This document shows, piece by piece, positions 1,733 through 36,263 of a DNA stretch of 64,000 nucleotides. A model generated the notes under the pieces. The model ran no database searches, was not told the origin of the DNA, and worked only from the letters and a program-made list of their open reading frames with translations. The stretch is from Sediminibacterium sp. (lineage in GTDB: Bacteria > Bacteroidota > Bacteroidia > Chitinophagales > Chitinophagaceae): the NCBI GenBank assembly GCA_044337245.1, contig JBIINW010000001.1, forward strand, positions 9,528 to 73,527, in the 5' to 3' direction. Numbering within the stretch: position 1 is the stretch's first letter; each line of letters begins with the position of its first letter. Both the position numbers and the translations under genes were made by a program.

Positions 1733-3079
1733 TTAGGCTTCGGGAGCTTTGCGTAATGACCGGGTAATAAAAAATAGGCCAATAAAAGCAGCCAGCACGC
1801 CCAAACCTATCAGGGCTGTTACGGGAGTTTGCATAAAAATACTTACCCCCACAAAGCAATAAGCCGCCATAAATAACAGGGGAATGAAGGGAAATAATTT
1901 CATCTTAAAAATGCCGGTGCCATCCAGATGGGCGGTTCGCTTTCGCAAGATAAATATGGTTGCACTGGAAGCTACCATCCCAAAACAATCGAGAAATATG
2001 GTAAAGTTGAGTATCTTCTCAAAGGTTTGGGCAAAAAACAAAATTACGATGCAAATTCCGGCAAATACGGTTAACGAAGCTACCAATACATCATTTTTAT
2101 CCGATTTTTTGGCAAATAGGGCTGGTAAAACACCTTCTTCGCTCATGGCAAACATTACTCTAGGATTGCTCATCAATAAAGCATTTACATAGGCCAAAAC
2201 CCCAAAGAATAAGAAAAAGGAGAAAATATCTGCTCCAGACTTGCCAAAGGTTTTCATCATCAGCACATAGGCTATTTCTTTTTCTCCCTTCATCTGTTCA
2301 AAGCCTACAATTTGGTAATAACTAAAATTGGCTAACAGGTATAAGGCAATTATTATGGCAATGCCGATAAATATCCCCTTAGGAATATTCTGTGCAGGTT
2401 TTTTTACTTCACTGCCAAAATTTATGGTTTGCTGATATCCTCCGTAGGTAAAACAAACCGCAATCATACTGGCCCCTAAACTTTTTATCCAAGGCATCCA
2501 TCCCACTTCAACTTCATTGGAAGCTGATACGGTTGCAGTTGGTATCGCCGCTCCCTGGTGAGGGAATAGAAGCGCCAGTATCAATACCCCAATCATACCA
2601 ATCTTAATAATCATGAGGATATTTTGTGCCCGCGAACTCAAAGACAATCCCCGCAAATTGATAAAATAAAACAGGATGATGGCTGCGCAACTGATTAAAG
2701 CTTTATCAATATCCGTCCAGGCAATTCCAGGAAATAATTTTGTAATATATCCACTCCCAATTAAAGCTACCCCGCTCAGGCTGGCCGCATTGCTGATTAA
2801 AATAATGCAGTTGATACCAAATGCAATACTGGGATGATAGGCATACGAAAATATTTTATAATATCCGCCAGTAACCGGATACCTACTGCCAATTTCTGCA
2901 TACGTGAGTGCGCCGCATAAAGCAATGATTCCACCCAAAATCCAGGCAGCAAAATATACCGAGGGAGTAATGGCAAAACTGGCGCTGGTAGCTGCTGATC
3001 GGAATATACCCATGCCAATCACCAATCCCACCACAATCATGGTGAAACTAAATAAATTCAATTGTTGTTTTGCTGCCAT
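1733..3079 (-). CDS. APC family amino-acid permease
   Basis: About 12 hydrophobic segments, G-x-V-I-G-M-G-I-F in TM1, GALTYAEIGSRYPVTGGYY and YGGYQ motifs. Likely start MAAKQQ at 3079. Confidence 0.9.
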   Translation of the reverse strand: MAAKQQLNLFSFTMIVVGLVIGMGIFRSAATSASFAITPSVYFAAWILGGIIALCGALTYAEIGSRYPVTGGYYKIFSYAYHPSIAFGINCIILISNAASLSGVALIGSGYITKLFPGIAWTDIDKALISCAAIILFYFINLRGLSLSSRAQNILMIIKIGMIGVLILALLFPHQGAAIPTATVSASNEVEVGWMPWIKSLGASMIAVCFTYGGYQQTINFGSEVKKPAQNIPKGIFIGIAIIIALYLLANFSYYQIVGFEQMKGEKEIAYVLMMKTFGKSGADIFSFFLFFGVLAYVNALLMSNPRVMFAMSEEGVLPALFAKKSDKNDVLVASLTVFAGICIVILFFAQTFEKILNFTIFLDCFGMVASSATIFILRKRTAHLDGTGIFKMKLFPFIPLLFMAAYCFVGVSIFMQTPVTALIGLGVLAAFIGLFFITRSLRKAPEA

Positions 3080-3219
3080 TATAAAAAAGTGTGCGTTAAA
3101 TATAAGACACTTATCTGAAACCCTTCCTTTCCCCTGAAAGTATCGTATAAATCGAGGTGAATTGGGAAGCCATTGAAATATTGCTACCTTCATATTCCCA
3201 ATAAATCCCCCAACTGTTT

Positions 3220-3798
3220 ATGAATATATCTATCAATGAATTGATAACGGTTAGTTTTACCTTATTTGCAGTAATAGATATTGTAGGATCGGTTCCCTTA
3301 TTGATTTCGCTGAAAGAAAAAATGGGAGGAATTCGTTCTATTCAGGCGACCTTAATTTCCGGGGCCCTGATGATTTTATTTTTATATGCAGGCGAACCAT
3401 TTTTGCGCATTTTGGGTTTAGATATCTATTCATTTGCGGTAGGTGGATCGGTGGTAATTTTTTTACTGGGATTAGAAATGGTATTGGGCCACGAAATATT
3501 TAAGGGAAATCAGGATATCAAATCCGGCACCCTTGTACCTATTGCATTTCCCATTATTGCCGGAAGCGGAACCCTTACCACCATTATGTCGCTGAAAGCA
3601 AATTTTAACGAAGCCTATATATTAAGTGGTATTTTAATAAACCTCGTAGTGGTTTATATCGTTCTTACTTCGCTAAAATTTATCGAACGAGTTCTGGGAC
3701 CCGCCGGGTTGATGGCAGTTCGTAAATTTTTTGGCGTAATTTTATTGGCAATAGCTGTTAAACTATTCAGCAGTAATATTGCCAAATTCGGAAAATAA
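3220..3798 (+). CDS. MarC family integral membrane protein
   Basis: LFAVIDIVG and VPIAFPIIAGSGTLTT motifs, six hydrophobic segments. Confidence 0.9.
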   Translation: MNISINELITVSFTLFAVIDIVGSVPLLISLKEKMGGIRSIQATLISGALMILFLYAGEPFLRILGLDIYSFAVGGSVVIFLLGLEMVLGHEIFKGNQDIKSGTLVPIAFPIIAGSGTLTTIMSLKANFNEAYILSGILINLVVVYIVLTSLKFIERVLGPAGLMAVRKFFGVILLAIAVKLFSSNIAKFGK

Positions 3799-27634: not shown

Positions 27635-28351
27635 TTAATGGAAGAAATCATTGGCCATTTGTAAGCTTCCGGGCTTGCCTACATCTAAAAACCGGGTACC
27701 CGTATGATCGAACCCGACAATATAATTCAGATTAGCGAGTGACAAATACACATCTACCATAGAAAACTTACCCTTTTGCGGAATCTTTACCAATAGGCTC
27801 GAGTTGATAACATGTATCCCACTAAATGCTTTAGGAATTTGAAATTGCGAGCTTTTTACAATCTTTTCACTAAAGGGTTCTAATTGGCGCCAACCTACCA
27901 GCGACTGCTCCTCATCAAAAAGAAAATGTCGGTTACTCATCCGGTCGGTAACAGCGAGGGTAGCCAGGGCATTCATATCCAGGTGGTGCTGAATCATTTT
28001 CGACAGTTTCAGGTCGGTTAGGATATCAACATTTAAGGCTACAAAATACTCTTCGCCTTCAAAAAAAGGTGCGGCTTTTAACAAGCCCCCGCCGGTATCG
28101 AGCAGTTCATCCGTTTCATCAGAAATGTGAACGGTAGAACCCCAACCCTGATTTTCGGATATTGCCTGAATAATTTGATCGGCAAAATGGTGCACATTCA
28201 CTACCACTTCCCGAATTCCGGCAGCCTGCAAATACTCAATATTGCGTTGCAGCAAAGATTTGCCATTAACTATGGCCAATGCTTTAGGGTGCTCATTGGT
28301 CCAAGGCTTTAACCTGGTACCCAATCCTGCAGCAAATAACATGGCTTTCAT
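27635..28351 (-). CDS. Nucleotidyltransferase, MurU-like (MurNAc-1-P uridylyltransferase family)
   Basis: MKAMLFAAGLGTRLKP, NVHHFADQI, LLDTGGGL and NVDILTD motifs; adjacent to an AmgK-like kinase. Start moved to 28351. Confidence 0.82.
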   Translation of the reverse strand: MKAMLFAAGLGTRLKPWTNEHPKALAIVNGKSLLQRNIEYLQAAGIREVVVNVHHFADQIIQAISENQGWGSTVHISDETDELLDTGGGLLKAAPFFEGEEYFVALNVDILTDLKLSKMIQHHLDMNALATLAVTDRMSNRHFLFDEEQSLVGWRQLEPFSEKIVKSSQFQIPKAFSGIHVINSSLLVKIPQKGKFSMVDVYLSLANLNYIVGFDHTGTRFLDVGKPGSLQMANDFFH

Positions 28352-28398
28352 ACTTGACGAATTAATTGTATACAAACAACACCCAATATACGATTTTT

Positions 28399-33411: not shown

Positions 33412-33936
33412 TTAGGGCTTTAATCCAAATACCTGCACTTCTTTCCCTTCTCCGGTATGATAGGGCTTACGAAATAGGGTTATTCCTTCTAAAGAAAATT
33501 GAACGGGGATTGTTTCTGTGGCTTGCTGTTGATGGTACCATTCGTCCGGAACTTTCCATTGGATAAAGGTGCCGAACTGCATGGCCGGACAATCACTACC
33601 CTGTAAATAAGGATTCAGTGCATGCAATTGCTGCCGAAGTGCCTGAAAATGATTTTGCTCCCTTATCTGCCAGCGGGCAGGCTCATTAGGCTGCGGTTTT
33701 ACCATATCTAAGGTTAGGGTAAACTGCTGTTGGTGACTGAATATTCGCTGCATCCATCGGATTAGAGTATTTTCCATGCCCTCTCTGGCCAAAAAAGCTG
33801 CCATACAACCTGCCTGGCGGGGTAATAAGAGTTTATGCCGTATGCCAGCGGGTAGATTAACCACCAGCCAATAATGCCACCAGCCGTGTATCGGCTGAAT
33901 CGTTGCTGCCCCGCCCACTTCTTTCGCTGCCACCAT
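33412..33936 (-). CDS. Hypothetical protein, possibly a degenerate 2H phosphoesterase (2'-5' RNA ligase-like)
   Basis: Open 174-aa frame divergent from umuD. YWLVVN, QFTLTLD and FSLEGITLFRK fit the 2H fold pattern, but no HxT motifs are visible. Confidence 0.45.
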   Translation of the reverse strand: MVAAKEVGGAATIQPIHGWWHYWLVVNLPAGIRHKLLLPRQAGCMAAFLAREGMENTLIRWMQRIFSHQQQFTLTLDMVKPQPNEPARWQIREQNHFQALRQQLHALNPYLQGSDCPAMQFGTFIQWKVPDEWYHQQQATETIPVQFSLEGITLFRKPYHTGEGKEVQVFGLKP

Positions 33937-33947
33937 AAAAAATGAAT

Positions 33948-33988
33948 TAATAATTATTTTAGCATAAAAATACTAATTAATTTAGCAT
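33948..33988. promoter_or_regulatory. Tandem candidate SOS boxes (CTAA-N5-TTAG type)
   Basis: TAATAATTATTTTAGCAT (33948-33965) and TACTAATTAATTTAGCAT (33971-33988) match at 16 of 18 positions. The second contains an exact CTAA-N5-TTAG. Confidence 0.65.
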
Positions 33989-34003
33989 TTCAAAAATAAA
34001 ATT

Positions 34004-34435
34004 ATGGATACGGAACAATGGTATGGAGCCGCCTACAAAGGCTCGAAAGATTTTGATCAGTTAGCCGTACCTACCGCCAATGCTACCGGGTTTGGTGCCG
34101 CGGCCGACGACTATATGGAACGGGGCATCGATTTAAATGAACAACTCATTCATAACAAGCCCGCCACCTTTTTCTTCCGGATGAACAGCGAAGCTTTGCG
34201 AGACAGTGGCATTTATCCGGGGGATGTGTTGATTGTAGACAGAAGTTTGCCGGCCGTTCACGGAAAAGTAATAGTAGCTGTAGTAAATGGAGAAATGCTG
34301 GTGAGAAGATTACTCGTGCACCGGCAAGGCCGTACGCTGGCTGCCGATAACAAAAACATTCCGGCTATATCCATCGCTCCGGGAACCGACTATATGGCCT
34401 GGGGCGTGGTAGTGTACACAATTCATACCGTATAA
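34004..34435 (+). CDS. umuD: UmuD-like S24 protein lacking the catalytic Ser/Lys
   Basis: GFGAAADDYMERGIDLNEQLI and GDVLIVDRS align with UmuD; immediately upstream of umuC. Confidence 0.85.
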   Translation: MDTEQWYGAAYKGSKDFDQLAVPTANATGFGAAADDYMERGIDLNEQLIHNKPATFFFRMNSEALRDSGIYPGDVLIVDRSLPAVHGKVIVAVVNGEMLVRRLLVHRQGRTLAADNKNIPAISIAPGTDYMAWGVVVYTIHTV

Positions 34436-34436
34436 T

Positions 34437-35714
34437 ATGCGTGCCATTGTAGATTGTAACAGCTTTTACTGCTCGTGCGAACGATTGTTTCGGCCGGGGC
34501 TAGACAAGCGGCCCGTAGTGGTGTTGAGTAATAACGATGGATGCATTATCTCTCGCACTGATGAAGCCAAGCAACTGGGGATTGTGATGGGGGATCCGTA
34601 TTTTAAAGCAAAAGAACTGATTGAACGGCATCAGGTAGCCACCTTCTCGTCTAACTACAATCTGTATGGCGACCTCAGCTGGCGGGTGATGGAATGCATG
34701 CGATCGATGCTGCCGCCGGAATGTGTGGAAGTGTATTCGGTAGATGAAGCATTTCTCGATCTGAATCACCTGCCGGCGGATAAGGTGTACGATTTTTGCG
34801 TAGCCATAAAAAACAGAATTGAGCAGTGGACGGGCATACGGGTATCTATTGGGGCGGCACCTACTAAAGTGCTGAGCAAAGTAGCCAACCGACTAAGCAA
34901 AAAAAACAAAGTGGCTACCGGAGGTATTTTGTTACTGGATACCGATGAAAAGATAAATGCAGCGCTGCAACAAACACCCGTAGGGGATATCTGGGGCATC
35001 GGACGGCGCTATGCAGAAAAACTGATATCCCTTCAAATTCATACTGCCTTCGACCTTCGTAAGCAAACTACCGAATGGGCCCGCCAGTTGCTGGGTGGCG
35101 TAACCGGAGTTCGGCTGCTGCACGAATTGCAGGGGATGCCCTGTATCGGAATGATGGAAGAACTGGTTACTAAAAAAATGATTGCCACTACCCGCATGTT
35201 TGGCAGCGATGTAACCGACATTACTGCCATCCGCGAAGCTGTTGCCACCTATACCTCTAGGGCAGCCGAAAAACTCCGCCGCCAAAAGGGTGCGGCCAAC
35301 TGCATCAGCGTTTTTCTGGTGCCCAAATCGCCCCCGGCTACCGGCCGTTTCCGACACGGACCTGCTATCGGAAGCTACATCCAACTATCCATGGCCACCG
35401 ATGCCACAAATGAACTGATTAAACCCGCTATACAACTCGTAAACCAATTGTTTGAAGAAGGACTCATCTATAAAAAAGCCGGCGTATTATTATCCGGCAT
35501 CGTGCCCCGTGATAGTGTGCAGGGGTCTTTATTCGATACACCCCATCCCAAAACAACCCAGCTGATGAAAATGATAGACAACGTAAACTTCGCAATGCGC
35601 GATGATCTGCTGAAGTTCGCAACCTCTGGCACCAACCGCAATTGGAAAATGCGGCAGGAATTGCGAAGTCCCCGCTATACCACCAGATGGGAAGAATTAT
35701 TCCTGATTCGGTAA
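34437..35714 (+). CDS. umuC: Y-family DNA polymerase V catalytic subunit
   Basis: IVDCNSFYCSCER, VVVLSNNDGC, YSVDEAFL and C-terminal WKMRQELRSPRYTTRW motifs. Confidence 0.93.
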   Translation: MRAIVDCNSFYCSCERLFRPGLDKRPVVVLSNNDGCIISRTDEAKQLGIVMGDPYFKAKELIERHQVATFSSNYNLYGDLSWRVMECMRSMLPPECVEVYSVDEAFLDLNHLPADKVYDFCVAIKNRIEQWTGIRVSIGAAPTKVLSKVANRLSKKNKVATGGILLLDTDEKINAALQQTPVGDIWGIGRRYAEKLISLQIHTAFDLRKQTTEWARQLLGGVTGVRLLHELQGMPCIGMMEELVTKKMIATTRMFGSDVTDITAIREAVATYTSRAAEKLRRQKGAANCISVFLVPKSPPATGRFRHGPAIGSYIQLSMATDATNELIKPAIQLVNQLFEEGLIYKKAGVLLSGIVPRDSVQGSLFDTPHPKTTQLMKMIDNVNFAMRDDLLKFATSGTNRNWKMRQELRSPRYTTRWEELFLIR

Positions 35715-36263
35715 TTATAAAACCTTACCCGGATACTTGCTAAATAATTCCTTCATGGCTTCCGCAGCTATAGTAGGTAATTGCTTTTGCTTATCCGGAA
35801 TAACTCCCTTTGCCCCTCCCTTCCACAGCATCTGTTTACGCGCAGCATCAACCACGTGCACCGTTACCGTTCCTTCCCGATAACGACCTACCTCAATCTC
35901 TTCACTTTTCCAGGTATAGTTGCGTTGACCCATATAACGGGGAGCCCCATCAGTACGCCAGTCGGTTTCACGAGTCTGTACCTGCTCTTTTACTACCAAG
36001 CCAATGTTAATCAGTAAATCGGGCTGGGCAGCTTGTTGCACATAACCCCGCTGCTTCATTTCCTGAGCAATGGCCTGCTTTAACACATCAATTCCGGAAG
36101 CAAACTGAGCACTTACCGTGTCTCCGGAAGCATCTACCTGATAAAAGTCAAAGGTTTTATACTTCGCCCAATCCACATTATCCGCCGATTCCGTAGGTAA
36201 AACCTTTACACCTGAACAGGCAGTTAAAAAAGCACACATCGTAATAAAAAATAATATTCGCAT
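35715..36263 (-). CDS. DUF4136 family lipoprotein
   Basis: Lipobox LTAC; YKTFDF, QPDLLINI, YREGTVTVHVVD and LWKG motifs. Confidence 0.85.
   Translation of the reverse strand: MRILFFITMCAFLTACSGVKVLPTESADNVDWAKYKTFDFYQVDASGDTVSAQFASGIDVLKQAIAQEMKQRGYVQQAAQPDLLINIGLVVKEQVQTRETDWRTDGAPRYMGQRNYTWKSEEIEVGRYREGTVTVHVVDAARKQMLWKGGAKGVIPDKQKQLPTIAAEAMKELFSKYPGKVL

Follow-up and report, generated by a model that had tools for sequence, protein, structure and literature searches.

A UmuD homologue of Chitinophagaceae in which both residues of the S24 catalytic dyad are replaced

In Escherichia coli, cleavage of UmuD discards the first 24 residues of the protein, a step that is stimulated by RecA* and that textbooks give as the late checkpoint holding back mutagenic synthesis once DNA is damaged. 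Bacteriophage P1 HumD represents a natural UmuD′-like form. The cleavage step has been discussed as a drug target to slow the evolution of resistance (PMC9926225), and in a model of E. coli Pol V the UmuD′ arm inserts between the palm and the little finger of UmuC, with the new UmuD′ N-terminus lying near the UmuC active site (PMC11791011). In Bacillus, YolD and YqjX, the non-protease small subunits of the YqjW/UvrX polymerases, have an SH3-like β-barrel core and carry an unprocessed N-terminal arm, for which insertion into the Y-family polymerase has been proposed (PMC6511836, PMC12926913). Two diverged relatives are also pertinent: the LexA of Synechocystis PCC 6803, which according to a statement cited in PMC2921402 naturally lacks the nucleophile serine and the cleavage bond, and UmuDAb of Acinetobacter, a UmuD that has diverged and whose role is altered, from a lineage without canonical LexA (PMC8565304). 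Here we describe a UmuD homologue in which both catalytic positions are replaced, encoded in a stretch of 64,000 nucleotides from Sediminibacterium sp. (contig JBIINW010000001.1, positions 9,528 to 73,527, forward strand), which we refer to as the window. The features of the locus on which the analysis turns are as follows.

33973–33985, no strand assigned: SOS operator CTAATTAATTTAG, an exact match to CTAA-N5-TTAG, beginning 31 bp upstream of the start codon of umuD
34004–34435, plus strand: umuD-like gene, an intact open reading frame (ORF) of 143 amino acids (aa) with an S24 fold and Ala64/Arg101 at the dyad positions
34004–34087, plus strand: residues 1–28, the counterpart of the pro-arm removed in E. 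coli UmuD, conserved
34085–34090, plus strand: Thr28-Gly29, opposite the E. coli scissile Cys24-Gly25 in the BLASTP alignment
34088–34159, plus strand: residues 29–52, the UmuD′-arm equivalent, GFGAAADDYMERGIDLNEQLI, the most constrained segment of the protein
34193–34195, plus strand: codon 64, GCT, alanine at the position of the nucleophile Ser60 in the BLASTP and phmmer alignments
34304–34306, plus strand: codon 101, AGA, arginine at the position of the general base Lys97 in the same two alignments
34437–35714, plus strand: umuC, encoding an intact Y-family polymerase of 425 aa

The umuD-like gene shares an operon with an intact umuC, and its product is a homologue of UmuD that has the UmuD′ fold. 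The protein's sole Pfam domain is Peptidase_S24 (PF00717; 4e-16, residues 27–137), and it scores 119.5 bits against the NCBIfam UmuD model NF007621, for which the cut-off is 110. BLASTP aligns it with E. coli UmuD, whose reference sequence was verified against NC_000913, at 36% identity over residues 28–140 and without gaps in the catalytic core; phmmer comparison with the sequences of UmuD′ (1umu; 6.5e-18) and UmuD (8gmt) in the PDB gives the same register. An AlphaFold2 model of the monomer has predicted local distance difference test (pLDDT) values of 84–91 for the core from residue 61, and its top Foldseek matches are 1umu, 1ay9 and 8gmt, with template modelling scores of 0.83–0.89 normalised to the target. 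The umuD stop codon (TAA, 34433–34435) is followed by the single base T at 34436 and then by the umuC ATG at 34437. A preliminary description of this DNA, prepared from the sequence alone, had proposed an intact UmuD homologue located 1 bp before an intact umuC, and the ORF coordinates, Pfam and NCBIfam matches bear this out. Every sampled 31-letter word of positions 33900–35800 recurs in 16 lake-water metagenome runs, and 98–99% of these words recur in four more, so that the sequence of the locus is not an assembly or sequencing error. The source is a freshwater Sediminibacterium, the locus matching a Sediminibacterium metagenome-assembled genome (MAG) at 99% identity.

The window protein shares with E. 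coli UmuD its fold, its operon with umuC, an SOS operator in the promoter and the sequence of the UmuD′ arm (GF...DY.E..IDLN..LI), which is retained. The aligned motif pairs are, with E. coli UmuD given first, ASGDSMID and MNSEALRD, GEFTVKKL and GEMLVRRL, and CGFPSPA and TGFGAAA; thus Ser60, Lys97 and Cys24, all present in the E. coli protein, correspond to Ala64, Arg101 and Thr28, and the GFGAAA stretch is without the prolines of GFPSPA. The preliminary description had reached these same three substitutions by eye, and BLASTP and phmmer reproduce its alignment exactly. An active S24 peptidase has both the serine and the lysine, and the window protein has neither; the UmuD family is cleaved at an Ala/Cys-Gly bond, and Thr28-Gly29 stands there instead. 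With Ala64 and Arg101 in place of the dyad, the protein would be incapable of self-cleavage by the S24 mechanism, and its category in MEROPS is presumably that of a non-peptidase homologue.

Could another residue pair have taken over catalysis? The preliminary description had named an alternative Ser/Lys dyad as an observation that would speak against its reading, and we therefore looked for one among 39 dyad-less sequences drawn from different 50%-identity clusters, in which no Lys and no Ser outside the former dyad positions is conserved, and hence no alternative Ser/Lys pair. Of all Ser, Thr, Cys, Lys and His positions in these 39 sequences, only Thr55 reaches conservation of at least 90%, and this residue is equally conserved in Ser/Lys UmuDs. 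His141 is found in 34 of the 39 dyad-less sequences and in 57 of 63 Ser/Lys UmuDs, and Arg80 and Trp133 are likewise common to both groups; because Thr55, Arg80, Trp133 and His141 are equally conserved where the ordinary dyad is present, they mark no new active site. Ser62, which lies two residues upstream of Ala64 and was considered as a shifted nucleophile, was ruled out, being Gly in 30 of 81 relatives.

The replacements are a property of the family. A scan of one genome per species returned at least 374 relatives, of which the best 80 loci were taken together with the window to give 81 sequences; for most of these loci the label is Chitinophagaceae, Sediminibacterium or Chitinophagia, the others having MAG labels that are broader or doubtful. 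Ala fills the Ser60 column in 79/81 and Arg fills the Lys97 column in all 81, while the P1 column, on the N-terminal side of the scissile bond, is Thr in 80/81 and is followed by Gly in every sequence. The same picture emerges from the window protein and its 120 closest 90%-identity cluster representatives, which are 66–96% identical to it: at the Ser60 column 116 of 121 have Ala (Ser in the other 5), and at the Lys97 column all 121 have Arg. Cultivable relatives with this variant, Hydrobacter penzbergensis and Asinibacterium sp. OR53, are among those named. At the nucleotide level, codon 64 in the 81 sequences is GCC in 45, GCG in 14, GCT in 13, GCA in 7 and TCG in 2; at codon 101 all six Arg codons occur and none encodes Lys, and all four Thr codons occur at the Thr28 column. 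With every Ala and every Arg codon in use, the two residues have been maintained through many synonymous changes. By the Nei-Gojobori method, omega is 0.03–0.09 in close pairs, and the overall ratio of nonsynonymous to synonymous differences per site (pN/pS) is 0.27, with pS saturated at 0.77. These comparisons show that the Ala/Arg replacement is family-wide in the Chitinophagaceae and under purifying selection, a pattern that in these alignments lies far beyond chance, and they exclude the strain-specific decay that the preliminary description had named as a possible refutation. That description had also called for an alignment of Bacteroidota UmuDs to see whether the double substitution is clade-wide; every one of the 80 related loci has it, and it is under purifying selection, but it does not extend to the whole of the Bacteroidota.

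The plasmid-borne UmuD of Fulvitalea axinellae (Cytophagales) is canonical (AG site, Ser and Lys), as are cyanobacterial plasmid UmuDs, including that of the Synechocystis plasmid pSYSM with its AG site, Ser and Lys. A profile search for the nearest Ser/Lys relatives returned proteins from many non-Bacteroidota phyla, the Fulvitalea plasmid supplying the one canonical Bacteroidota example obtained. Dyad loss is thus not Bacteroidota-wide. For a broader census, an exhaustive HMMER search of 1.84 billion cluster representatives gave 5886 matches at E ≤ 0.001, and the S24 domains of the best 150 of these were aligned to the query, a sample biased towards its neighbours. Among these best 150, the Ser60 and Lys97 columns hold Ser/Lys in 91 domains, Ala/Arg in 33 (with 14 further Ala-bearing fragments that stop short of the second column), Ser/Arg in 10, and some other residue together with Arg in 9. 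In a neighbour-joining tree built without the dyad columns and carrying no support values, most Arg-bearing proteins fall into one clade with the window protein, and at least six others are placed singly among Ser/Lys proteins. Members without the dyad occur sporadically outside the Bacteroidota, in an Oculatellaceae cyanobacterium and in a Planctomycetaceae MAG, for example. We found no earlier description of a dyad-less UmuD in the literature, including comparative papers on Y-family polymerases and on the SOS response. The NCBIfam model that names its members "autoproteolytic subunit" scores these proteins above its cut-off, which amounts to a systematic annotation error.

The proportion of nonsynonymous differences per site is 0.19 for residues 1–28, 0.053 for residues 29–52 and 0.25 for the core, and pairwise identity within residues 29–52 is 0.92. 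The segment that precedes the Gly has an identity of 0.68 in the dyad-less clade as against 0.25 in 117 Ser/Lys UmuDs, a comparison matched at a core identity of 0.55–0.65. The preliminary description had remarked that the N-terminal arm is retained, and it is indeed conserved; in E. coli UmuD the pro-arm is fast-evolving. Conservation of residues 1–28, unlike that of real pro-arms, speaks against a discarded peptide.

As a separate observation on the arm, its WYGAAYKG stretch (within 34004–34087) faintly resembles GFGAAADDY downstream (within 34088–34130), the two sharing an aromatic-Gly-Ala-Ala pattern. This short echo may be the trace of an arm that was partly duplicated.

The residue at P1 provides a second line of evidence. 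Single-domain Ser/Lys UmuDs keep the canonical AG or CG site in 70 of 71 cases, whereas single-domain dyad-less UmuDs have AG in only 4 of 31, P1 being otherwise mostly Thr, Ser, Asn, Pro, Val, Ile or His. The site is kept in 13 of 15 tandem proteins, in which a degenerate first S24 domain is joined to an active second one. Retention of AG/CG where an S24 active site is available, and its loss elsewhere, argues against S24-type cleavage of the single-domain forms, either in cis or in trans. We found no P1 data in the related literature on the tolerance of S24 proteases for Thr at this position.

The tandem proteins are UmuD-like polypeptides of 250–300 aa with two S24 domains (P0130, P0132, P0135, P0138, P0145, P0166, P0204, P0227, P0263 and P0300, as well as locus L086 at 2753–3535). 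Domain 1 keeps the arm and the AG/CG site and has a degenerate dyad, in which Arg nearly always stands at the Lys position; Ser and Lys are both present in domain 2, which lacks the arm. Their arrangement resembles that of a covalent UmuD "heterodimer" in which a single arm is combined with a single active site. The gene for P0300 is followed directly by a umuC homologue and is preceded by a CTAAGTATTTTAG box of the CTAA-N5-TTAG type. The two domains of one tandem are often paired in the neighbour-joining tree, which suggests repeated independent duplications. An origin of the single-domain dyad-less proteins from domain 1 of a tandem was considered and set aside: domains mostly pair within a protein and the main single-domain dyad-less clade stands apart, a topology that carries no support values and is suggestive only.

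UmuC matches Pfam IMS (2e-36), IMS_C, IMS_HHH and DUF4113, and the NCBIfam UmuC model aligns over residues 1–424. In an end-to-end comparison with E. coli UmuC, Asp6, S(I/V)DEAF, QLM..D..N and an identical SPRYTTR tail are kept, and QLNLF reads QGSLF. We take Asp6 and S(I/V)DEAF to hold the catalytic carboxylates, QLNLF to be the clamp-binding motif, QLM..D..N to be the RecA-binding region and SPRYTTR to be the UmuD′-binding tail. Since these motifs are conserved, polymerase activity and partner contacts appear to be under selection. A umuC gene lies downstream of umuD in 78 of the 80 loci, and the remaining two loci end shortly after umuD.

The CTAA-N5-TTAG box upstream of umuD corresponds to the motif that the non-canonical LexA of Bacteroidota binds, which has been reported for Chitinophagaceae (PMC8565304). 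It occurs within 200 bp upstream of umuD in all 80 related loci, mostly at −31 to −36. The copy in the window has the sequence of an SOS operator of this group and is predicted to bind the repressor. The only other CTAA-N5-TTAG in the 64 kb, at 27822–27834, lies inside a 246-aa ORF (27635–28375, minus strand) and is probably a chance occurrence. Four freshwater metatranscriptome runs provide contigs over umuD and part of umuC, one of which spans the umuD/umuC junction; three contigs reach codon 64 and three reach codon 101, and both codons are unchanged in them.

Taken together, these data lead us to regard the window protein as probably an SOS-induced, Pol V-like accessory subunit that has lost S24 self-cleavage and works at full length. 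The preliminary description had proposed that the polymerase is activated by a route other than self-cleavage, whether active uncleaved, cleaved in trans or controlled only by transcription. SOS transcription is supported by the operator upstream of all 80 related genes, and activity of the uncleaved protein is the option favoured by the conservation of the arm and by the loss of the canonical Ala/Cys at P1 in single-domain dyad-less UmuDs; cleavage in trans is possible and less likely. DNA damage would lead to cleavage of the non-canonical LexA, which would then leave the CTAA-N5-TTAG box and allow the umuDC operon to be transcribed. The full-length UmuD dimer would bind UmuC without processing, residues 29–52 docking on the polymerase in the manner of the UmuD′ arm in the E. 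coli model, and residues 1–28 would serve as a permanent functional part that provides an added contact, by analogy with the unprocessed arm of YolD/YqjX. Dependence on RecA would probably remain only through the contact between UmuC and RecA. An unprocessed UmuD would mean that one of the three E. coli control layers, the RecA*-stimulated cleavage of UmuD, is absent.

The known systems help to delimit this proposal. The closest functional analogy to an unprocessed arm is that of Bacillus YolD/YqjX; YolD belongs to PF08863, has no sequence-detectable kinship with S24 and is modelled as a monomer, in contrast to the window protein, which is a true S24/UmuD homologue and has no match to PF08863 at E ≤ 0.01. 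HumD is similar in that neither protein would need RecA*-stimulated self-cleavage, and the window protein has a weak match to the NCBIfam HumD model, at 66.7 bits and below its cut-off of 120. HumD lacks a pro-arm, whereas the window protein keeps a conserved arm and loses the catalytic residues; with 28 conserved residues preceding Gly29, it is not a pre-truncated form. The Synechocystis LexA is, like the window protein, an S24 protein of the SOS family, but it is a DNA-binding repressor rather than a polymerase subunit, and regulators of the UmuDAb type join a DNA-binding domain at the N-terminus to S24, whereas the 143-aa window protein has neither that domain nor the dyad.

Several observations weigh against a full-length active subunit. 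Non-cleavable E. coli UmuD (S60A, K97A) is not known to support SOS mutagenesis. [quoted passage not shown] The near invariance of Thr28-Gly29 and its flanks (ANATGF) in the family would also fit the recognition site of another protease. With pLDDT below 50 over residues 1–52, the monomer AlphaFold2 model is uninformative for the arm and predicts it to be disordered; the RNA contigs are short and of low depth, and DNA carry-over is possible; and the absence of cleavage is one that we infer from sequence.

The alternative that survives best is that the protein remains a pro-protein and that a protease encoded elsewhere in the genome cleaves it in trans, at Thr28-Gly29 or close to it; candidates are the non-canonical LexA, a different Ser/Lys protein of the S24 type and a protease of unrelated origin. 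Activation through loss of the arm would then be retained and delegated to another enzyme. Within the dimer, one UmuD subunit naturally cleaves the other (PMC9926225), and the tandem proteins, one of them situated before umuC, pair an inactive, site-bearing S24 domain with an active one. The near invariance of Thr28-Gly29-Phe30 and its flanks is consistent with such a substrate, as are the positions of the RecA L2 pocket, which are still hydrophobic (Phe56, Phe58 and Met98), and the retention of Glu97. The P1 residue, however, is Thr, as opposed to Ala or Cys in 70 of the 71 cleaving single-domain UmuDs, and other dyad-less lineages have Asn, Pro, Val, Ile or His there, which argues that S24 enzymes no longer use the site as a substrate. 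Moreover, the segment that cleavage would release equals the core in conservation, as real pro-arms do not, and an S24 partner is absent both from the 64-kb window and from the surroundings of the operon in the 80 loci: no second S24 gene was detected among the six-frame ORFs of the window or in the umuD-umuC spacers of related loci. We consider processing in trans unlikely.

A second alternative holds that full-length UmuD keeps UmuC permanently in a "UmuD2C-like" state, acting mainly as a damage checkpoint or polymerase manager that slows replication and restrains DinB, rather than in mutagenic translesion synthesis. Uncleaved UmuD together with UmuC has checkpoint and anti-mutagenic roles in E. 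coli, and the window protein, without the dyad, has no means of turning itself into UmuD′. Two features speak against so restricted a function. The Asp6, SIDEAF, QLNLF-like and C-terminal tail sequences of UmuC are conserved, so that polymerase activity appears to be selected, and residues 29–52, whose counterpart the E. coli model puts close to the polymerase active site, are the most constrained segment of UmuD. A purely checkpoint role seems to us improbable.

Self-processing by a chemistry other than that of S24, through an N-to-O acyl shift at Thr28, Asn26-mediated cleavage or residual Ser/Arg activity in the few members that retain Ser, is highly improbable: Asn26-Ala27-Thr28-Gly29 is invariant or nearly so in Chitinophagaceae and ten Ser/Arg domains occur among the best 150 of the 5886 50%-identity cluster representatives, but the wider dyad-less clade has Asn, Ala and Thr at positions 26–28 in only 12/39, 16/39 and 13/39, respectively, and the fold suggests no such site.

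If UmuD does act at full length, a wider proposal follows, which we advance tentatively and which could go either way. The whole of this abundant family may operate its Pol V-type mutasome with no RecA*-coprotease checkpoint, what was once a pro-peptide having become a permanent and selected part of the protein, for example as an arm that binds UmuC, RecA or DNA. The Lys-to-Arg change, usually accompanied by Ser-to-Ala, may have arisen repeatedly in other phyla and in independently formed tandems, where the asymmetry of one arm and one active site that marks trans cleavage in the UmuD dimer would be hard-wired, and UmuD cleavage would represent an optional layer of control, gained or lost lineage by lineage, and would not define Pol V activation. 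Were this so, a family-wide, strongly selected UmuD without cleavage would indicate that the Pol V architecture is workable, or controllable, without that step. Dyad-less UmuDs would also offer a natural comparison for the role of the N-terminal arm in the assembled mutasome. Chitinophagaceae are common in freshwater and soil, and the kinetics of damage-induced mutagenesis in these organisms may differ from those of the E. coli model.

Two genes flank the operon in the window.

33412–33936, minus strand: gene divergent from umuD, across a 67-bp region that contains the SOS box
35715–36263, minus strand: DUF4136 protein (Pfam, 1.6e-31), converging on the end of umuC

A divergent neighbour is found at the equivalent position in 46 of the 80 related loci (for example, L010 at 2339–2926 and L006 at 2340–2927). 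Relatives of this gene match the Pfam 2′-5′ RNA ligase superfamily (PF13563, 6e-20) and contain both HxT motifs (PHITVA and HPHLTIA); the window copy and its closest relatives (L001–L003, L008, L009, L011, L012 and L015) have lost both motifs and have no Pfam match. This makes the window copy a second apparently dead enzyme alongside the dyad-less UmuD, with which it may share the SOS operator. The DUF4136 gene occurs at the equivalent position in about 23 related loci, a case of conserved synteny with no evident operon link.

The spacer between umuD and umuC, normally very short, holds an inserted ORF in 17 of the 80 loci (L006, L019, L024, L025, L038, L044, L046–L048, L051, L055, L057, L065, L067, L069, L071 and L080). 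Among the ORFs in the enlarged spacers, counted in about 20 related loci, none resembles an S24 protein. Judged by their sequence motifs, they look like tyrosine transposases of the IS200/REP-associated (RAYT) type (MxxTKIWIHLVWATK...), members of a related 199-aa family, or DUF559-like endonucleases, and the umuD-umuC spacer appears to be an insertion hotspot.

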